DNA of 63,775 nt, counting the filler, from Atractiella rhizophila (Eukaryota): NCBI GenBank assembly GCA_021432655.1. It is 4 parts of 4 records of this genome, joined end to end, with 100 filler letters (N's around TTAATTAATTAA, not from the genome) between each part and the next. Parts side by side here need not be neighbours in the genome. Positions count along the whole stretch, not along the records: positions 27,212 to 54,290 come from MU271749.1; 3 more parts are not named here. One strand, given 5' to 3'. Numbering within the stretch: position 1 is the stretch's first letter; each line of letters begins with the position of its first letter. This document shows, piece by piece, positions 25,140 to 60,995 of the stretch. The notes beneath the pieces are model-generated. The model searched no databases, was not told the DNA's origin, and worked only from the letters and a program-made list of their open reading frames with translations. A program made the position numbers and the translations under genes.

Positions 25140-27007
25140 CTAAAGGGTTCGCACTTTCTTGATTGTGGATGGCGCTGAATCGTCCCAATCCTCCGCGATA
25201 GCGGCCAGAACACCAGATAAATTGGGAGGTGTGGCTGCGGGAGTCGTAGGCATTGTACTGAAAGGTGACATCGGAGGAGAAATAGTCACATTGACTCTCC
25301 TTGCGAGAGCGGAGAGAGGAGATTCAGAGCTGGATGCGGAACCTGAGGTCTGAGAATAGTCCGACGAACTGGCTCTACTGTGAGGGTAGGTTGTATTTCT
25401 CGACGTGAGCCCTTTGAACGGTGCAAACTGTGCGTGCGGCGAAGTCGACTTGTTTCCATCGCGGAGGAAGAGGCGTTGAAAGACATCACGAGCAGTCTCA
25501 AATCCAGAATCCCGTCTCTCGTTCAAGTTCTCGACCTTCGAGCTAAGATGTAGCCTTCAATCAAAACGAGGGTGGGCAAAGACGGACCTTTAACGATCGA
25601 AGCAGCTTCTTGCCGTCCAAATACAATGGAGAATGCGCACTTTTTTTCCGTCCCCTCCTCTCTGGTAAGATATTGCTCTCGATGCTAACTTGAATAGGTA
25701 CGCCAATGACCGTATTCTTCAAGACCAACGTGCATGGTCCAATGGATCCAGGCATACGAGGATGACATCGCGTCTGTGTTGCGTTGCTGCTTTCATGGAC
25801 ATTAGGCTCGAGGTCGCTCGGACGAGGATTCGTAAATGTCATAAATGATTCGATGCATGTTTCATCCTCGTTCTGGCTGGTGAATCTGGTAGGATCTGCA
25901 GAGGAGACGAGGGGTTATCGCATTCGACCGCCCATTCCAGAAGGTGGAGAACACGAATAGTGTAATTGCCGCCTCCAAAAGTATAGCCCATGAANNNNNN
26001 NNNNNNNNNNNNNNNNNNNNNNNNNNNNNNNNNNNNNNNNNNNNNNNNNNNNNNNNNNNNNNNNNNNNNNNNNNNNNNNNNNNNNNNNNNNNNNNNNNNN
26101 NNNNNNNNNNNNNNNNNNNNNNNNNNNNNNNNTATGTGTGCAGAAACTTGTTGATTTCTGCGACTGCCACCGTTTGGCGAGAGAGTACGTCGCCGGTATG
26201 TGATTTTGCTTAAGAAATGCGTAAAAAGCTAGTTTACAAAGTGAAGAAATGATTCATACGAATAGCACCTCCCTATCTCGATTTAGAGCTTGTTTCTACA
26301 ACATAGGGAAGAGTTCTCACAGGTACGAGACGGGTCATGTAAGAAACATGAAACCCTGGCTTCTTGGGAGGTAGGTGGAGTTCAATCTCGGCTGAATCAT
26401 CTGAGACAGGAGACTCGGGCCTCGAATTAGGCCACTGGAATTCAGCTTCAAGTTTAGGCGTGGAATGCGTCTCTCGAGACAGTGACGAGTTTGACCATCG
26501 ATCCCGAGCTTGATTTTGGAAGGGTGAGAATGTAGGCGATCGTAATGCAGATTGGGATGCGAACGAGGACGCCCTGGAATGCGTTGTAGATGATGGCGGT
26601 GAAGATGTTGATGAATATCTTGGGCGAGTGATACCCATCTTTTTCAGTGATGACTGTCGTGAAGGATGACGGCTGGAGGTTTGCTTACCAAGTGTAACAA
26701 TAAGCATGTGGTGAGGGCTTGGGGGCAGACTGGCTGGGGCACTCACATTGGTCGAGGGCGATGAACTCGAGGAGCGCTGGTGTCGCCTACTCGGCAGGGA
26801 TGATCGGTCTGAACTTATGGATTGCGAAGTAATAGTCGAAGAAGAGCTATTTCTTGTCATTCTGAGCGAAGGAGATCCATCGGAGCTGCTAGGAAGGTAG
26901 GAGGGCTCATGGGATGATAACTCCAGCTTCCGCTGTTTCGAGTGGGAAGTTCTGCGGGAATTATATTGTGGTGGGTATGGGAGCTTTGTCAGGGTCCATC
27001 CAAGCAA
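25140..27007 (-). CDS. Hypothetical Ser-rich protein spanning an N gap
   Basis: Collinear minus-strand Ser/Pro-rich ORFs (26273-27007, 25862-26170, 25140-25526) with intron-like gaps. No family recognised. Confidence 0.4.
25995..26132. other. Assembly gap (138 N)
   Basis: Run of N with no linker. Confidence 0.99.
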
Positions 27008-27111: not shown

Positions 27112-27211
27112 NNNNNNNNNNNNNNNNNNNNNNNNNNNNNNNNNNNNNNNNNNNNTTAATTAATTAANNNNNNNNNNNNNNNNNNNNNNNNNNNNNNNNN
27201 NNNNNNNNNNN
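27112..27211. other. Artificial contig spacer N44-TTAATTAATTAA-N44
   Basis: Exactly 100 nt with a six-frame stop core, identical to the two other spacers. Confidence 0.97.
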
Positions 27212-29032
27212 TCATTCCGTGTACCTTCTGTTGGTGGTTCTGTTTTCGTTTCCAAGCCTCCTTCCGTGTCATTCGCAGGTCGGGGACTGGCAGCCCGTCA
27301 CGATCCGTGTGGCACAGCTCGTCTCTGAACTCAACATTGCAGCAGGAGAACTTCGTGCAACATAGCTACCGCTCTACTCCGTCAAGGACGGGTGTGCAAT
27401 TACCGTCGCTGGTCGCTGAGGACTTTGTACTACCAGTATATCTCAGTATCGGTAGCGATGCCTTCACTCCTCCCCAGTACCACCAGGATGACAGGCAAGA
27501 AGCGATTGCATTGATAGGGGAGATGGATGGTCCGAGCAGGTCCGAGACTGATCGCGCCAAAGCCAGGCATTTGAGGGGGATTGACTCACTTCTGCCTACT
27601 ATTTGCTGTATAACGGGGATCAACTAGCAAACATTGGTCGTTAGCATGGTCACTTGGCCTGTAATAGAAGCTAAATAATCAGCTGCTTCGCGCCGTGAAT
27701 GTAGACATTCGTTTTTTTTTGTGTGGCCATTCGCTTGGGATTTAGGAGTCAGGAAGGCCATCACTTGAGCCGACGTGCCATGTATTTCGAAGTCCTCAGA
27801 GCTGTAAAGCCGTTGTTAAACGAATTGGCACACGATGGCCGGCCGAACAATGCTTTGCGAACCTAGCAAACAGCCTAGTGTGATGAAAAAACATTACTTC
27901 GATCAGACGGAAGCCAACATGGTTGTCCTCAACAACCACTGAATGGTATCCAGCATATGCTCTATGATATCTAGGGCAGAAGAACTTAGAATGCAATGCA
28001 CACTGCTCTGTCAATATCGGTTAGAGTCATCATCCCTTCATGATTGAGAGTGAAATAAAAGCACGCGATGGTGGAAAGCGAGGAAGGAACACAAGATCCA
28101 GATCCATACTGTGGGGAGCACGGAACACATTGGTAAATGTCAACAAGAAACCAATTATTCGATAGTGAGATCTTCTCGCTTCCGACTGAAAAGTGTTAAA
28201 TGAACGGAAAGGGCTCGAGGAGAACAAAGACGACATTGTGTACTACTTCTCCGAATCCCTCACGCGCCTAATCACAGAGACTGCACTTCTTGACCTTCTT
28301 ATGGCGGGAGATCCTTTAGCAAGCACCTACGATGTTCGAATCTCCTTTCCTCCTCTCACCGTTACGCGCTGTTGGGTGGGAGAAAAAGAAATTGACCCCA
28401 CGAACTCTTTCAATAGCTGGCTATTGGGACAGAGTTGCGTTGGAGTTTGCCGCTTTGGTAATTTACTTCCCATCCATAGACAAAGCTCATTGCTCCTCCA
28501 GCGGTAACAAACAAGAAAAGACCAGCTACGATCAAGGAACATTTTATCAGCTGCAGGACGAGGAAACAGATGAATTCAGGGAAATATGACCCTCTTGCAC
28601 ACTTATGCAGAATGATGAAAGAAGCTGGGGGTAGTCGATAGCGACTGTCCAGGAGGACAACCATCTGTTTATCTAGGTTTTTCTGTCTGTGTGTTAGTAG
28701 CATTCTGTGATATGATCATCCTATCTTAGAAAAGTCGTCTCTCTCGTTTATGATGTGCCACCTCACTCTCGCGCATTCGCCTGTGTGAGTGGATGTCGGA
28801 AACCCTGCTTGGGAGGTTACCTCCCTATGACTACAGAACTACACGAAGCATCGTGTTCTGCCGAGTAAGACGAGTTCTACAACATTATGCTAAGAGAGCG
28901 AAGATTGTCTATTCCACTAAATGGTACGCCGAGAATTCGTATCTAACTGGAAACCACTCCTGTTCGATATTGCAATTACCACAAAAACCAATATCAACTA
29001 TGAAAGGGCTTACAGGCACTGTTGATCCACCC

Positions 29033-29209
29033 TCAAGACCCAATACAACGCTTCACTTTGGTTCCCTCCCATGGGCAGTATATCGGACCCTCCGTTGGGC
29101 TTGGCTTGGGTTTGGCTAATCTGCTTGTCGGAAGCTCAAGATCTTGAGGAGCAGGGAGAGCCGCCACGACTATAAGGAGGGGAAAGAGAAAAGCGAGAAG
29201 CTGCATCAT
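29033..29209 (-). CDS. Small secreted peptide precursor 1 (58 aa)
   Basis: MMQLLAFLFPLLIVVAALP signal peptide-like start; C-terminus PIYCPWEGTKVKRCIGS*; paralog at 30069; predicted 5'UTR intron 29263-29210. Confidence 0.8.
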   Translation of the reverse strand: MMQLLAFLFPLLIVVAALPAPQDLELPTSRLAKPKPSPTEGPIYCPWEGTKVKRCIGS

Positions 29210-30068
29210 CTTCGTATATGGCAAGATCAGCCTCGCAAAGAGAACGAGAGTGGTATGGCTCACAAAAGCTCAGCGCAGAGAGGATGAAGGGCTTCCTGTG
29301 GTGCTGACGGTAAGGGTAATAAATACCAGGAACACTTGCTCGTCCTTTTAACTGTACATTTTCCCAAACCTTTCCTAACGTTTGTGGGTCTCTGACTCCG
29401 GAACAACTGTACGGGCAACAAGGGCCAAGCCACATCCAAGAGAAATTATCTCCTGTGCTGGACAATGCTATTGAATTCCTTCGGGAAGGCCGAATGCGAA
29501 TTGTGGAACACAAGGCAGTTATTCCGAACTCGGTATCATCCCATCAAAAGCAAACAATGAGCCAATATCAACATCCGATGTTGGGACACAACTCAAACAG
29601 ATATGTCAATGATACCCAAAAGCTCTGAGCGGTAGAATTCAACGTAGCAAAGGTGGCAGCAACCTTATTCGCTTTCGTCTCCAACGCAAAGAGAAACAGA
29701 ATGGATGCAAGGATGAGCTCTCTCATCTGGGTCAGTCACGAGAATGTTCGATGAGTCATATTGTTTTCTTCCTTGAGACAGTACAGAGAACGCGTTATCT
29801 AAGAATTCACTGCTACGGCACCACCTGATAGAACAATTACAAGTTGTACTCCTAGCAAATGAAGCTATTGCGAAAACTGAGCCAGAACAAACGAAGAACC
29901 GCATGACGAGAATGAAGAGAGTGACAATGACAATGGTCCGTTCCACTGCTCCGCGAATGTCAAAGAGTGGAAAGGGGCTTGGGCTTCATCCGAGCAGGAT
30001 AGGCACTTGTCCATGAGAGTTAGCAAACATTTTGATCTTGACAGAAATCTGTACATGTGCGAAGCTCC

Positions 30069-30254
30069 TCAAGAGCCAATGCAGCGCTTCGCCTTAGTCC
30101 CGTCCCATGGGCAATACTTGGGACGGTTGGTGAAGAGCGGTGTCGTCGTAGTGGCAGTAGCGGAGGTAGTAGTGGAGGTAGTAACGGCTGCCTTAGCAGT
30201 TGGCAAAGCTGCGCCAAATGCGACGAGGAAAGAGAGAAGAGCGACGACTTTCAT
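30069..30254 (-). CDS. Small secreted peptide precursor 2 (61 aa)
   Basis: MKVVALLSFLVAFGAALP signal peptide-like start; Thr-rich linker; C-terminus PKYCPWDGTKAKRCIGS*; predicted 5'UTR intron 30323-30258. Confidence 0.8.
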   Translation of the reverse strand: MKVVALLSFLVAFGAALPTAKAAVTTSTTTSATATTTTPLFTNRPKYCPWDGTKAKRCIGS

Positions 30255-32669
30255 GAGCTTCACGCAGAGAAACACGTATCAGGCTTTTCGGCTCTGAAAG
30301 AGAGAAGACAATCAACGGCTCACGAAAGCTGCAAACAATGCTATGGATTACTCAGGATGACGAAGCGTTGAGCAAGGGAGTGCTATCTGCGAAGGAGGTG
30401 CCTCTTTTAAGGCAATTTGCAACGTTGGTGGGTCTTCATGAAAAAAGAGCGGACCTGAGCTCTCCGCAGACGACAAAAACATCCCGCATTCAATTGTCTC
30501 TCAGTCCACCGCACTGCCTCCCTCCTGTTCGCTGCCATAAATAGTGAGGGAGGAAGGAAAGTCCAAAACTTTATTCGCTAATGACCAGGATTTACATGCA
30601 AACATGGATAGATCTGCCACGGCACGGCGTAACCGAATTATTGAACATATTGAATGCCAGATTGAACAGTCCACGCACCGCGCACACGAGAGACCCTGCA
30701 TTCCAACCGATAATGCTCACGTTTGTCAGCAGATGCTGCGGTTTAACACCAATCCCCAAACAACTCCTGCATATTCTTCACCTGCAAGGACGTCGATACC
30801 ATGACACTACGGTTTGAATGAAATGAAAGGAATGAAAGGAAGATTTTGAGGTTGTTCAAACCGTCTCATCATCCCGTGCCACGGAGTAAAAATAAGGTTT
30901 GGCCTCTGGCCATAAAACTAGGCTTAAAGAGAAACTCTCGATCTCAACAAATTCGAAAGGGCAGGTTTGTCTAGATATTCTGGATGGTATCTTTATGTAT
31001 CAGGAAGACCAGAATGAAATCTGGGAAGACACAGTGTCCACCAAATCAGCATTGCTACTTTCAACCCTGTCTCTGAATCCGAGTGTTAATTCGTGCTCTT
31101 CGAGCTGTTCCTATTTCACGCCGGTGTCTGATTATTGTCAGAACAGTTTAACTTCACGCATCAACACAGTCAACCACGCAGAGGAATGTCGCTTGTCGGT
31201 TGGATGGCATTTTTGGGTGCCACCAGTAATCCGAGAAATATTTCATTCCGTCATCCCGGTCAGCCTGCTTTGGATTTTGCTTTCTCCCTCCGCTACTGTA
31301 TTTACCTACAGATGCTCTAAGAGCTCACGGCTAAAATCAATCGCTTGAGTCCAAGTTGGTTTTACAACTCTGAGTTTAGACGAGCCTGCGCAATCTCCAA
31401 AAGGAAAAAAGCTTACATTAAGCTACCAAGCTTCTACCCTTGCGACAAATCTTTGACCCAGTCTTCCACTTCAGAAGTCTGGCAAAAGCGCGCTAGTTGT
31501 AGCGTTCTCTAGTTAGCCTTCAGCAACTAAACCTCCTCACCTGTGAGAGACCTGAACCAAACTTTCGTGTATTCCGATTGTAGAGGAGAAGAGACTGTCT
31601 TGAGGAAGAGTCGGGTAGGCTGGATCCGAGAGGAAGCATGAGGTCGGCAGAGTGAAACAGTCTTCAGAACCTCTTCATTTTTTGGGTACTCACGTGTGTT
31701 TTCCTTCATGGGAACTCCCCTTTGCATTGGTGTGTGTCATCCAGTGGCCTGTGTGAGCACGTCTATGTCTGTGTAGATTCGGCCGGCGCAAAAACCAGGC
31801 ATTCCACAGCCCAACCCATCCAAAGTCTGCAGGCAGCTGCAAATGTAGCCTTGTAGTAGACTTATCGCGGTAGAGTCATTAAATGCTTTCAACATTCATT
31901 TCAGGTGTGTTCAGCCTAGCATTCGTGATACTGCTTGAATGAGACTCCGTCTTACTTGGGAAGCTGTGATGCTTGTTATGTCGCACGAGAGTGTCACGTC
32001 CTGCCTTCTTCCAGGTCAACTGCAGTTCATGTTTTTGTTCATCTCACGAGAGCACCGATCTAACAGGGTCACGACAGTGGGCCTCGGCTCGTTCTCCGAC
32101 CTTTGAATGGGAGTTGGAGAATCCAGCTTCGGCTTCAAGCCGTTTGGATAACCTTCCAACATTCTCCTAGATTCTCCACAGATATGAATGTCAGAACTTT
32201 GGGCGGGGCTTCCTCTTCTCCCCTCTAGTCTTCTGCCGGTGTCGTCCCCTTCTTGTCGCTGTCTCTAGTCTGCAGGCTCAAAGCCGCTTACTCTTGTACT
32301 GCCCAACCTAATCTCCGCACGCCAGCAAATCTTGGGTGACTTCTTTTCGTGATTCTCACGCTCACCACTTATAAAAGCCAGACCGGGCGAGACCGTTGCA
32401 CTTCCCCTCAAAGTCAACGGACAGCAGATTACAGCACTCGCCTCAACGGCTCTCATCGTCAATCTTTCACCCTAAAGGACCTCCGCCCATCTGATCTGCT
32501 CACTGTGGCGAACTGGGACATTCAGATCGGTGGAGCTGTTGACGGACTTCTTCAATAAGGTCAAGCAAGCTCTGCACAGGGACACCACCGGCTACAAATA
32601 ACTCTCATTCCCCTTTGTTCTCCAGCGCCAACCTCCTCGATAATCCTTGCAGCGAAATTCATTGACGGT

Positions 32670-37392: not shown

Positions 37393-38971
37393 ATTGCATA
37401 TCTGCGTTATCACCTCTCACTGCATGTCCCTTTTCAAGCTCTTGGGAGATCACACTATCTATGGATTCTGCTTTGTTCATTAGAAAGATGTTCGGTGATG
37501 GGATTGCCTTTTGATATTTGGAATTCCGTATTCGCGCTCAACCTAGTGCATTTCTACTCTCCATGCTGTCCATATCCCATTCTTGGTACTTGCAAGCTTG
37601 ACGCCTTGTACTTACATGAGGCTGTTGCTCGGGCTGGCCGCTCAAGGCGATATTCTTCCCGTTAATCACCACCCGGACATTCTATATTTGGTCGGCCTTC
37701 TCTTCTGCAAGTTCTGCTCAACCAGCATCCCACTTCAGTCCCTCGTTTCTTTCCTTCAAGAGCAGCTTCTTCAAGCACCAACCCCTCCTTTCCTCCTCCG
37801 CATACCTCACACTTGTTGTTTACTTGACAAAAGGTTCCGACGCCGAGAATCTGCGGCGCGCACATCCTCCCGCTCGTCCAAGAAAAGCACCATCGACGAC
37901 AAAAGCGCTCGACGTTTCGACGTCACCCTTTCTGGGGTCCTTACATTCCTGCATTCCTCGCTACAGCGGACGTGATTCCCTTCGGTTGTAGGAGTAGGCA
38001 AACTCTGTAGGGATACGTAAATAGGAACGAACGTGGTGAGTCTCTCTTTCAGTTGAAACGTTCTAGGAGGAGACAGGACATGGAGACGTTTTTCTTTGTA
38101 ATGTGGTATTGGGACGAGTCTCGTTGAGAATAACTGGACTTTGGACAATTGCTTGGAGGATGGTGCTCATTGGTTCTCATGCTCCGATCACCTGTTATTG
38201 GAGGAAGAGCGAGTCAACAGTTTGACTTTTCGCAAGGAGTGCTTCCACTTGAGAATTGTCAGGGAAGTGGTAGGAGCTGGTCTGCCTTCCGAATTGCTTG
38301 GGGTGCTGAAGACGCCATCTGCCAAGTCCCGTCGCCAAACCGGAGCGGGATAGCTGCGAGCAAGATTATGCCATATGCCCTTGCGCACGTGCAGTCTGTA
38401 AGATTCACAGGTTTGCTTGCTGTCGCGCTTTTTTTTCTCAGGAAGATGTGAAGCCGGAAGTGCAGCTGTGGAAAATGGATCACATGAAATGTGGATAGAA
38501 GAGTCATACTTGCTATTCAATGTCCGCGGATTCTTGTTTTGAATTCGCCTTTGAGATGGGCCAGGCTAGAGAGCAAGCTTGCTCAACGAGCGAGTTGTGT
38601 TGAACAATGGTCATTGCGCACTGCCTGAAAGTTATAGATCCAACAACACTTCCTGTTTGGGAAGATGAGTGAAATAGATTTGACACTGGAAGGCACAATC
38701 GCGATTGGGAATTCCTTTCTGCCATCGCCATCGGCAACCTTGAGCACACAGCGCTCGAAAATCCTGCAAGGAAGCATTCTATCGTGCTGAGGAAGTTCCA
38801 AGATGTCTAGAATGTTGCAACCAGGTGCAACGTTCTCATCCGGCGCCTTTCGGCGCTCACCCTTGTTTCCAGAAGCAAGGCCGAAAAAGACACCGCTGAC
38901 TTTCGCGGCATAGAAAACTCTGCCTTCTTTTCTCTATCTTCCTTCAGCTCTTCGACCTTTCTCCATCTGCC

Positions 38972-40372
38972 ATGTCTACATCTACAACAGGCACAACACT
39001 TCCAGCTCAAACCAACATACCCGATGCGGACGCGAAATCTTCATCCTCACATTCTTCGTCCTTCCCTCTCGCGGCGATAATTGTCGTTGGGATCGTGGGA
39101 GCGGTTCTTGCACTCATTCTTTCTTACAAGATCTACCGCTGCCTCTGGCGGCGGAGGAGTGCTCCGTTGCCCGCATTGGATCGAAACTTGTTGGATAAGG
39201 AGGAAGCAGACTATGGGTACCCAGATCGTCAGCGTCCAGTCAGTACATTAGATGAGAAGGATTCTGGATTTTTTGGAACCGGCGGGTCGTCGCGGATGAG
39301 CTCTTTGGCCTACGAACGAGGGAGTGAACCGTCCACCCCACCTTCTGCACAAACCTCATTCGGAGGGCGTAACACACCTACACATCCCCCTGCTACGGCT
39401 ACGCTGCCTTCTGCCCACCAAAGGTACTCCTCCAGCCCTGGACCACAGAACCGTCATTCCATGTACGCCCTTGGAGGTGCAGGCGGAAGCTTTCCCCGTG
39501 CATCGGCCAGCAATCGACGCTCAATCTACGCCATGTCTCGTCACACTCCCCTTTCATCATCCCGTCCTGCCTCCTTCCATTCCCGTCCGTCCTCGTTTCA
39601 TGCTGCGCAGCTACAACCGCAACAGGTTCGCGCTCCCAATCGTTTGTCTGGCGCACCCCACTCCGTCTACTCCCAAATCGAAATTATTCCTCCGAAACCG
39701 CTAGGGAAGGAATATACCACGGTGATGGGGATAGAGAAGGATAAACTCGGATTTTCAGAGGCGAGCGGGATCGGGTTGCAACGAGACGACAGCGATTGGT
39801 TCCGGGAGCAGGTCAGGAGCGAGAGTCAGAGGACGGGTTTGACAGAGGAGGAGATTGGGCATGCAATGATGAAGAGGATGAGGGAGGACCCGCATTCGAG
39901 ACAGTCCAGCTACATGAGCCAACCTTCCTCATCCTCGCAAGAACAACCCAGTCTCAACTCGTCCTTACATCTTCCGACGGACGGGAACAGCTTCCCCTTT
40001 CAAGGACCTGATCCATTGGGCTCTACCTCTCGCGTGGCGTCCTCACCTGGCATCTCGAGAGGAGGAACGTTAAGAACCGGCGACTCTGGATCTTCTCAAG
40101 ACGACGACGAGTTCTTCCTCGCTGGTGCCAGTGCTGCCTCCCAACCAGACGATACGACCCGTGGACGTCCGAGTGGAAACACCAATTCGAGCATGAAGCG
40201 TAGTCCACTAGACCGCCTACAAAAACAGGCGGAGCGAGAATCGCGTCGGATGGGCAGCGATGACAGCACGGTTGAGGGAACTGTATCTTCTGAGCCTGTT
40301 GGAGCAATGCGAGAGGGAGAGGGACGAGAGGGGAAAGTGACCGAGGCTCTTGATATGGGCGGGAAGCGATAA
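38972..40372 (+). CDS. Intronless single-pass membrane protein with long Ser/Pro-rich tail
   Basis: 466-aa ORF with TM segment LAAIIVVGIVGAVLALILSY followed by basic RCLWRRRS. Confidence 0.75.
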   Translation: MSTSTTGTTLPAQTNIPDADAKSSSSHSSSFPLAAIIVVGIVGAVLALILSYKIYRCLWRRRSAPLPALDRNLLDKEEADYGYPDRQRPVSTLDEKDSGFFGTGGSSRMSSLAYERGSEPSTPPSAQTSFGGRNTPTHPPATATLPSAHQRYSSSPGPQNRHSMYALGGAGGSFPRASASNRRSIYAMSRHTPLSSSRPASFHSRPSSFHAAQLQPQQVRAPNRLSGAPHSVYSQIEIIPPKPLGKEYTTVMGIEKDKLGFSEASGIGLQRDDSDWFREQVRSESQRTGLTEEEIGHAMMKRMREDPHSRQSSYMSQPSSSSQEQPSLNSSLHLPTDGNSFPFQGPDPLGSTSRVASSPGISRGGTLRTGDSGSSQDDDEFFLAGASAASQPDDTTRGRPSGNTNSSMKRSPLDRLQKQAERESRRMGSDDSTVEGTVSSEPVGAMREGEGREGKVTEALDMGGKR

Positions 40373-43436: not shown

Positions 43437-49094
<5,658 letters not shown>

Positions 49095-51673: not shown

Positions 51674-53444
51674 ATTTCACGGCAGATGATATTGTAATTG
51701 TGACTTGAAGTTCGCGTTTACGTTCGAAGTGGAATGATTTACTTTCGAGCGTTGAAGCATCCTCCTTTTATACGTTCCATTACACTCATTAGGAACTCCC
51801 CTTCGCGGTGCTACTCGTAGCCTAGTTGCCTCAATACAATCCTCCTGTAGTAAGCAAGCGCTATACTCGAATCTTCAATGCCGTTCCCATATCCGAGATC
51901 GGCTGAGGCGGGAGAAACTTTGGGATGAAGCCTCCGACAGCAAGGAAAGTGGAAAATGTTGCAGAGACTCCTCCGAAAAGGCAGGACTCGCATTTTGGGT
52001 CGGTCACGTAGTAATTCTGTCCACGCACTATGTCACTCGGTATTGCTAAGCTAAGCTTTCAGGTGAAAGGAGTGAACTTTCTTACTCAAAGCGCGGCCGC
52101 TTTGATACCGACTACTGTATCTATGTCTTAACATGAGAGCAGCAGAGTGTGAAACAGAACGCCCTGGGGCTAGCAAAGATGTTGTTCAAGGCACAGGTTT
52201 AGTTGCAATGCTTCAGGACTAGGTACAAAGCATGCAAAACAAGCTCAGGTTTAGAATAACCTGGATCAGTTTATCAAACTGTGTGCGGAAATGAGTGTGA
52301 AACTCACTGGCACCCTGGCCTCTGTGCATTTCATGTCAAGAGAGACGTTTAGCAGTTGATGTTGCTGCAGTCGGAGCCGATGATGCAGTCGCAAACGATG
52401 AAGCCCTGTCCCAGTTCTCAGGTCGAGCTTATTGCTCGACTTCAAAGGTACTTACTTGGTTGCCATTCTAGAACCCCAAGTTAGTCATATCATGCTAGGG
52501 CGAGAAGAAAAGACCTTACCAATTGGCACAACCTAGTTCCATCGTTTTCAACACAGACTCCTTCCTGAAGTAAAAAAAACGTCAATGCTGAAGAGAACCC
52601 AAGGATGGGATAAATTTACAATAACTTGCTGCAATGGGTTATAGTCAGCCTCTGAGCTCTAGAAAGAAAGAAATGGAAACAACTAACAGCTGAAGCAACG
52701 GCTGCAAAAGCGAAAGCGGCGAGGATGGCTTTGAAGTGCATATTAGCTGAGAGTGTTGAGCTTGAGAGTTGAGAGGTGTGTAAATAATGTGGTATGAGTT
52801 TGTGTTAAGTATAAGAGGCAAGGTTTCCCTGCTTTTATATCCATCCTTTGCCTCCCCTGTCCCCCGGAATTGAAAACTTGTGGAGTGAAGTCCTACGACT
52901 CCACCTGATGGAAAGAAAACCAACCCCCTCGTCTTGGTCAACGATATTGGATGGCAGTGAGTGACGTTGACAAACATTGGAGGATCCATGGGATTATTCG
53001 AAGCCATCGTCGGCTTATCCGGTGTATGGAGGATAGTCCCAAGGGCACAACGGCAAACCCAGCATCATCGTAAGATACTAAGGGGGGTCCCTCCTTAGAA
53101 GCACGACGATGCTGCTAACCTGTGCGTCGAAATATGTAGTTTCGACATAATAAAGATGAGCCGGGAGAGGCTAAGACGGCTTCCAGTGCTGAATAAGCAG
53201 CTTGGCAGTGAAATGTTACAAGATGAGAGTAGAATTACCACGGAGGTGGAGGGACCGAGCGCCCTGGATGTATCGATGTCACTGGTGAAGCATTTCTTAT
53301 TCAGTAATATATAGTATGGAGCAACGGAACTTGAACCTTGGTAATAAAGTAAAGTAAGCACGAAGAGGGCTCTCACTTTGCATATTCCTCTCTCACGCAA
53401 CCTGTGTCCTTGATGTCAACATTTCTCGAAGGAGAATTGAGTGC

Positions 53445-54290: not shown

Positions 54291-54390
54291 NNNNNNNNNN
54301 NNNNNNNNNNNNNNNNNNNNNNNNNNNNNNNNNNTTAATTAATTAANNNNNNNNNNNNNNNNNNNNNNNNNNNNNNNNNNNNNNNNNNNN
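54291..54390. other. Artificial contig spacer N44-TTAATTAATTAA-N44
   Basis: Same 100-nt linker; unrelated genes are truncated on both sides. Confidence 0.97.
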
Positions 54391-60895: not shown

Positions 60896-60995
60896 NNNNN
60901 NNNNNNNNNNNNNNNNNNNNNNNNNNNNNNNNNNNNNNNTTAATTAATTAANNNNNNNNNNNNNNNNNNNNNNNNNNNNNNNNNNNNNNNNNNNN
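60896..60995. other. Artificial contig spacer N44-TTAATTAATTAA-N44
   Basis: Same 100-nt linker; RhoGAP and EMC1 are both truncated at it. Confidence 0.97.

Follow-up and report, generated by a model that had tools for sequence, protein, structure and literature searches.

A 63,775-nucleotide (nt) stretch of the genome of the fungus Atractiella rhizophila (GenBank assembly GCA_021432655.1; four contigs joined by filler, here called the window) carries two small tandem genes, A and B, on the minus strand of one of its contigs (27212-54290). Gene A (coding sequence with stop codon, 29033..29209) encodes a protein of 58 amino acids (aa), MMQLLAFLFPLLIVVAALPAPQDLELPTSRLAKPKPSPTEGPIYCPWEGTKVKRCIGS, and gene B (30069..30254) encodes one of 61 aa, MKVVALLSFLVAFGAALPTAKAAVTTSTTTSATATTTTPLFTNRPKYCPWDGTKAKRCIGS. 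A first-pass annotation of this DNA had described the two open reading frames (ORFs) as precursors in a candidate new peptide family, each made of a signal peptide, a variable pro-region, and a conserved C-terminal core. Both ORFs lie where that annotation placed them, and our codon table returns the same counts for their tails: the last 17 residues (PIYCPWEGTKVKRCIGS in A, 29036..29086; PKYCPWDGTKAKRCIGS in B, 30072..30122) are identical at 14 of 17 positions, the three replacements being I/K, E/D, and V/A, and synonymous codon differences occur at 8 of the 14 identical residues. Each protein has exactly two cysteines, spaced C-x9-C, and no His. The spacers that precede the core cannot be aligned with each other; type A is Pro/Lys-rich and type B is Thr/Ser-rich.

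The likeness of the two tails stands well apart from chance. When the last 17 residues of all 314 ATG-initiated ORFs of at least 40 aa in the window were compared in all pairwise combinations (49,141 pairs), the A-B pair scored 14/17 and the next highest pair 7/17. A six-frame motif scan and tblastn searches with both proteins found exactly these two copies of the core motif in the window, and the next-best tblastn match (E = 0.01) does not cover the core.

The N termini appear to have the features of classical signal peptides (residues 1 to 17 of A, 29159..29209; residues 1 to 16 of B, 30207..30254). The most hydrophobic 10-residue window on the Kyte-Doolittle scale scores 3.01 in A and 2.96 in B; both termini are nearly free of charge, A having at most one charged residue in residues 4 to 18; and AlphaFold, run on an alignment of five sequences (see below), places a helix at residues 2 to 16. 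The proposed cut, between AA and LP at an invariant site, fits the -3/-1 rule as judged by eye.

Transcription and exon structure

Twenty-four public sequencing runs from 18 studies, 4 of them recorded as RNA, are listed as containing part of the region 28300-31000, in shares of 0.08 to 0.36. Contigs of four runs (X24, X1, X2, and X8) were compared with the window; the remaining 20 runs contain 8 to 20% of the sampled words. X24 is apparently the organism's own run, and X8 is recorded as a root metatranscriptome. Contig depth cannot be used here to rank expression, and a stretch that no contig covers need not be silent.

Spliced contigs cover the gene pair in all four runs, gene A in X24, X1, and X2 and gene B in all four. 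Every joint of both genes reads CT..AC on the plus strand, that is, GT..AG on the minus strand. Both genes consist of three exons, with the entire coding sequence in the middle exon and both introns in the untranslated regions (UTRs). In gene A, the 5' exon extends at least over 29264..29340 (contig pieces; one X24 contig continues to 29735), and the 5'-UTR intron (29210..29263; joint 29209>29264) ends directly at the ATG, with 0 nt between. The middle exon (29014..29209) is followed by a 3'-UTR intron (28960..29013; joint 28958>29013, GT..AG after a 1-nt shift of the cut) that begins 19 nt past the stop codon, and by a 3' exon that X2 and X1 contigs cover, to their limits, over 28860..28959. 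The middle exon and both joints of gene A are seen in X24, X1, and X2. In gene B, the 5' exon spans 30324..30443 to the limits of the main contigs (X8 reaches 30420 and X24 reaches 30443), and the 5'-UTR intron (30258..30323; joint 30257>30324) ends 3 nt before the ATG. The middle exon (30055..30257) is followed by a 3'-UTR intron (30006..30054; joint 30005>30055) that begins 14 nt past the stop codon, and the 3' exon covers about 29736..30005, with contig ends at 29736 (X24), 29729 (X2), 29747 (X8), and 29784 (X1). The middle exon and both joints of gene B are present in all four runs.

In the spliced mRNAs, an in-frame stop codon precedes the ATG by 2 codons in A and by 9 codons in B. Thus, A and B are complete small genes rather than exons of larger proteins. 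The first-pass annotation had named three findings that would speak against it: a lack of transcripts or peptides, splicing of the ORFs into longer proteins, and a match to a described family. What we find is spliced RNA in each run examined, introns confined to the UTRs, upstream in-frame stops, and, in the searches described below, no matching family. A and B are almost certainly real protein-coding genes.

Some further features of the RNA are worth recording. The unusual architecture, in which the middle exon holds little more than the coding sequence, is common to both paralogues, even though the alignment of their flanking exons has been lost. Immediately upstream of gene B, a minus-strand X24 contig consists of 30416-30613 and 30679-30839, split by a GT..AG intron (30614-30678). 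This transcript (30416-30839) is an RNA of its own or else a gene B isoform with a long 5' UTR, and it contains ORFs of 34 to 44 aa only, none of them with a signal-like start. Between the genes, the X24 contig of gene A spans the whole stretch 29340-29735 and meets the gene B contig at 29735/29736, and an X1 contig also lies within this stretch (29502-29643), which suggests a long 5' UTR of gene A or read-through from gene B. Near the contig end, a plus-strand X24 contig at 28300-28501 with a GT..AG joint (28456>28501) points to a further spliced gene that converges with gene A.

Further copies in the assembly

The gene B protein is identical to P0003, which is recorded on a contig matching window positions 27212-54290, and it is 98% identical to a hypothetical protein of A. 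rhizophila. Two further annotated copies sit under neighboring locus tags on one contig of 41,665 nt in the same assembly: P0002, whose 58 aa are 88% identical to A, and P0004, of 61 aa. P0001 (61 aa) lies on a 31,197-nt contig of that assembly. The tandem A-B pair is therefore present at least twice, as haplotypes or as segmental copies. A collection of 15 billion proteins lacks the A protein of the window but contains its copy P0002, and public annotation thus probably missed gene A on the window's scaffold.

An alignment of five sequences (A and B of the window, P0001, P0002, and P0004) has 25 invariant columns. Among them are A-A-x-P, which closes the signal region, and, within the core, Y-C-P-W, G-T-K, and K-R-C-I-G-S. 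The five sequences, drawn from three or more contigs of the assembly, show no core replacement within a type: the window's A and P0002 differ at 7 positions, and these, like every difference among the B types, fall in the signal or the spacer. The contigs of the runs examined show variants at four coding positions, whose effects were worked out by hand from the codon table and the run contigs. Three are synonymous (E40 in A; V24 and D51 in B), D51 being in the core, and the fourth is a spacer change, A23T, which is the P0001 allele.

Selection and age of the duplication

By the Nei-Gojobori method, the proportion of synonymous differences (pS) between A and B in the 17-codon core is 0.76, which is saturated, and that of nonsynonymous differences (pN) is 0.09; in the signal-peptide region, the values are 0.55 and 0.33. 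Comparison of paralogue alignments with shuffled sequences gives z = 14 for the coding exon, while the 5' intron barely aligns (z = 2.6), and the 5' exon, 3' intron, and 3' exon do not align (z = -0.4, -0.1, and 0.4). Because the UTR exons and the 3' intron no longer align, the duplication is old, and because silent sites are saturated, recent gene conversion is ruled out as the source of the likeness of the cores. These values argue strongly for purifying selection on the core peptide, as the first-pass annotation had proposed from the codon differences.

Search for relatives

In Pfam-A, which was scanned with the two peptides and with 206 stop-to-stop translations of at least 90 aa from across the window, ORF A matches no family, and the sole match of ORF B, to the mucin-like family New_glue, is sub-threshold (19.5 bits, where the cut-off is 31). 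A word-indexed search of 5.8 billion protein clusters returned A. rhizophila proteins only (one match from three candidates and one from one). The same kind of search among longer proteins (108 to 2000 aa) gave 6,905 word candidates and no match at E values up to 10, which is weak evidence. A profile search of 1,835,955,588 representative sequences returned P0001, P0002, and P0005 only; since a relative sharing the core alone would probably score too low, this search does not prove the absence of distant relatives. P0005, a protein of 1,659 aa, was rejected as a relative: it matches profile positions 12 to 48, that is, the low-complexity, Thr-rich spacer.

Among known structures, a phmmer search of the Protein Data Bank (PDB) with the last 30 residues of A gave no match at E values up to 10. 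ORF B is present letter for letter in the ESM Atlas, where it has no usable feature match; the Atlas model has a predicted local distance difference test (pLDDT) score of 0.34, and its structural neighbors were disregarded. Five motif strings were not found in the full text of about 8.4 million papers, and among the papers listed as naming Atractiella rhizophila, none is about peptides, as far as titles and the opening lines of abstracts tell.

A first pattern scan of Joint Genome Institute (JGI) metagenome contigs gave 85 matches and no confirmed relative, and the back-translated pattern YCPW[DE]GTK gave 8 matches, none of which (0/8) goes on with x-K-R-C. Four of these 8 matches (L002, L004, L006, and L007) form a group of metagenomic open frames that ends in CPxC-x12-YKYCPWDGTKL[ED] and a stop codon. 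These frames resemble type B in nine C-terminal residues, KYCPWDGTK, but they differ from A and B in having a CPxC knuckle upstream and a different preceding domain, with no signal peptide and no K-R-C-I-G-S in the stretch read. Their tail resembles what we take to be a degenerate zinc-ribbon knuckle, and the likeness was set aside as a chance or convergent match to the search pattern.

Thus, in all the collections searched (proteins, the PDB, metagenome contigs, and full-text papers), the family appears to be restricted to A. rhizophila. The suggestion of a new peptide family has held up: the genes are spliced and complete, the core evidently evolves under purifying selection, and no described family is matched.

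Proposed product and alternative explanations

We favor the reading that A and B are old tandem paralogues encoding secreted disulfide-loop peptides that act outside the cell, and we put its probability at roughly 0.55. Signal cleavage, disulfide formation, glycosylation, export, and activity are all inferred here. The signal peptide would direct the nascent chain into the endoplasmic reticulum (ER) and be cut between AA and LP; the products are likely to be secreted. The two invariant cysteines, which probably form a disulfide, would close an 11-residue ring, C-P-W-[DE]-G-T-K-[AV]-K-R-C, with a short I-G-S tail. The variable spacer may serve as a disposable or glycosylated stalk, and the Thr/Ser-rich spacer of type B would probably be O-mannosylated. 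In this respect, the layout proposed by the first-pass annotation stands in part: the conserved core is borne out, but the idea that the spacer is cut out precisely, as a pro-region, is not supported, because no processing site is common to the two spacer types. The product would be released outside the cell with the conserved loop as its functional surface, and on balance we expect it to be an extracellular bioactive peptide of some kind.

As to what the loop does, we favor a specific binding loop, that is, an extracellular ligand or effector, or else a loop that engages proteases specific for basic residues. A membrane-lytic antimicrobial role is ranked lower because the core has a charge of only +2 to +3 and little hydrophobicity. 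A bolder proposal, which we regard as a long shot, would make the C-x9-C loop a new class of fungal extracellular peptide signal. The loop would be a ligand that a root endophyte directs at plant or fungal receptors, or else, through its disulfide-constrained K-x-K-R, an inhibitor of the canonical type or a decoy for proteases of the kexin, furin, or trypsin type in the root apoplast. In either case, the molecule would be encoded by a lineage-specific gene pair without relatives.

Several points weigh against a secreted disulfide-loop peptide. (i) The case for selection rests on one paralogue pair and near-identical alleles of a single species, and the evidence for both genes is at the level of DNA and RNA. 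(ii) The AlphaFold model is of low confidence (mean pLDDT, 56.8), and the isolated beta-bridges that it shows at residues 47, 50-51, 54-55, and 59 hint no more than weakly at a hairpin. (iii) The 27-kb physical contig holds no binding partner, tailoring enzyme, or informative neighbor. (iv) K-R, the one dibasic site that is invariant, falls within the proposed Cys-Cys ring, where kexin may cut.

The last point leads to the alternative that fares best, although we consider it unlikely: Kex2 would cut after the invariant K-R, so that the active species differs from the intact loop. In secreted precursors of fungi, Kex2 cleaves C-terminally of KR, RR, or KK, and the basic residues are removed by Kex1 (PMC9769878). 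A linear precursor would then yield a peptide ending in YCPW[DE]GTK[AV] and a free CIGS tetrapeptide, while cleavage after disulfide formation would leave a two-chain molecule joined by the disulfide. K-x-K-R is indeed invariant in 5/5 sequences, neither window protein has a dibasic site other than K-R, and the spacer of P0002 has an additional KRR. However, no repeats are present, a site within a tight disulfide ring may be inaccessible, and the C-I-G-S that follows the site is also invariant, which is unexpected for a discarded tail. Because C-I-G-S is invariant as protein while two of its codons, those for C and G, differ, we prefer the intact loop, in which the ring would shield K-R and leave either an intact loop peptide or a protease-directed loop.

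Quite unlikely, too, is a surface or cell-wall peptide, made in great abundance to coat or modify the hyphal surface, with a glycosylated stalk and a Cys loop for attachment or self-assembly. Its role would be comparable to that of the Ustilago repellents, peptides of similar size (PMC3133707). The spacer of B, rich in Thr, Ser, and Ala, and its sub-threshold New_glue match fit this idea, and spliced contigs in both X24 and root samples would fit constitutive expression, although contig depths cannot rank it. The spacer of A, however, is not Thr-rich, and what is conserved is a short charged loop only, not an amphipathic or repetitive segment.

We hold it improbable that the genes encode precursors of a ribosomally synthesized and posttranslationally modified peptide (RiPP), whose core Tyr, Cys, or Trp would be cross-linked or modified into a macrocycle by enzymes encoded elsewhere. 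The Y, C, W, and C of the core are all invariant, and fungal dikaritin precursors also have a signal peptide and Kex2 sites (PMC9769878). Against this, the Pfam scan of the window's 206 translations revealed no UstY/DUF3328 protein, no tyrosinase, no prolyl oligopeptidase, no methyltransferase, and no P450; the proteins have a single core without repeats; and the whole 17-residue stretch is conserved, not merely a short core.

An a-factor-type lipopeptide pheromone precursor, with C-I-G-S as a farnesylated CaaX box and export by an ATP-binding cassette (ABC) transporter, was already disfavored and is highly improbable. In its favor, the proteins are short and have, formally, a Cys followed by three residues as their C terminus; their contig also carries a full-size ABCB-type transporter gene, some 13.5 kb from gene B; and pheromone precursors of the Pucciniomycotina are as a rule of the CaaX type (PMC3236058). 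A hydrophobic signal peptide of the classical kind, however, would place the C terminus in the ER lumen, away from the prenylation machinery, which is cytosolic. Gly at the second aliphatic position is atypical, and no STE3 gene (PF02076) was found among the window ORFs, of which only those at 27212-54290 are physically linked to the pair. Finally, that A and B are transcribed but functionless young ORFs is scarcely credible even for a family confined to one species in every database searched, because of the selection signal (a core pN of 0.09 amid saturated neutral divergence), with gene architecture kept between the paralogues and multiple copies retained.

Genomic surroundings and significance

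The contigs of the window are joined by linkers at 27112-27211, 54291-54390, and 60896-60995, each consisting of 44 N, TTAATTAATTAA, and 44 N; TTAATTAATTAA places a stop codon in all six frames. A plain gap of 138 N lies at 25995-26132. Gene adjacency across the linkers is not physical, and thus only 27212-54290 is the physical context of the gene pair. The only matches above Pfam's curated cut-off on this contig are the ABCB-type transporter (43820-47552, minus strand), with two ABC_membrane and ABC_tran sets split by introns, and an aldo/keto reductase (50.3-51.4 kb). Nothing ties the transporter to the peptides. On the other contigs, the Pfam scan identified Hsp104/ClpB, an F-box protein, a pyridoxal-phosphate (PLP) enzyme, ERG4/24, RhoGAP, EMC1, and a hydrolase.

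Two unassigned frames were noted on the contig of the gene pair. A 490-aa open frame on the plus strand (38900-40369) has no Pfam or PDB match; its ESM features weakly resemble those of Opy2/Mid2-type Ser/Thr-rich membrane sensors, with a score of 0.89, below the bar of 0.9. A 41-aa ORF on the minus strand (52616-52741) has a signal-peptide-like start, MHFKAILAAFAFAAVASA, and could represent exon 1 of a further secreted protein.

Atractiella rhizophila lives in plant roots. Near-identical spliced transcripts of these genes occur in root metatranscriptome runs, and the papers listed for the species are mostly root and rhizosphere surveys. A short constrained secreted loop peptide would be cheap to synthesize and test; should it prove active, the few characterized fungal secreted peptides would gain a new sequence family.

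Comparison with known systems

Kex2-processed repeat proteins (KEPs) and dikaritin precursors (PMC9769878) resemble A and B in being small, with a signal peptide (a putative one in A and B), a dibasic K-R, and a short conserved presumed product. KEPs, however, consist of several short peptide repeats separated by dibasic Kex2 sites (PMC9769878), whereas A and B each have one core at the extreme C terminus and one dibasic site, with K-R between two cysteines. With a single core and a single dibasic site per protein, they were not classed as KEPs. An assignment to the dikaritin RiPPs (ustiloxin, phomopsin, and victorin) was likewise rejected, as no clustered UstY/DUF3328 or oxidase genes were found in a scan that intron-split or unlinked genes could escape.

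Lipopeptide pheromone precursors, e.g., those encoded by the red-yeast RHA genes, share with A and B a very short length, a C-terminal peptide, Cys plus three residues at the end, and multiple copies. They differ (PMC3236058) in having no signal peptide and in sitting beside STE3, whereas A and B have a signal-type N terminus and a second invariant Cys. A and B end in C-I-G-S, with the Cys and three residues of a CaaX box present and Gly at the second aliphatic position; a CaaX pheromone was rejected, the precursors being neither cytosolic in type nor linked to STE3. Two classes were set aside on their cysteines: cysteine-stabilized fungal defensins and other multi-disulfide antimicrobial peptides need six or more in a conserved pattern, where A and B have two, and zinc-ribbon knuckle proteins need four ligands in two CxxC-type knuckles, where A and B have two Cys (C-x9-C) and no His.

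Insect thanatin, the frog "Rana-box" peptides, and Bowman-Birk-like loop peptides have a single C-terminal disulfide loop and serve in animal host defense. Their layout is like that of A and B (signal, spacer, cationic C-terminal loop, and short tail), but they have no sequence relationship to them (the PDB search with the last 30 residues of A was empty at E values up to 10), have another ring size, and come from a different kingdom, so that the likeness is one of analogy only.

The gene pair also has features in common with the fungal small secreted (cysteine-containing) proteins and effector candidates (PMC4759460), which are likewise short and lineage-restricted, have a signal peptide and no Pfam domain, and occur in plant-associated fungi. 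They form an operational category rather than a family, and most of them are larger folded proteins, have several disulfides, and evolve fast. Unlike most of them, A and B conserve only a 17-residue tail, which appears to be under strong purifying selection. The pair thus takes its place as one of many orphan families of small secreted proteins, unusually well supported as real genes. The sequence family is new, but its kind is familiar: that of the small secreted peptide precursors.

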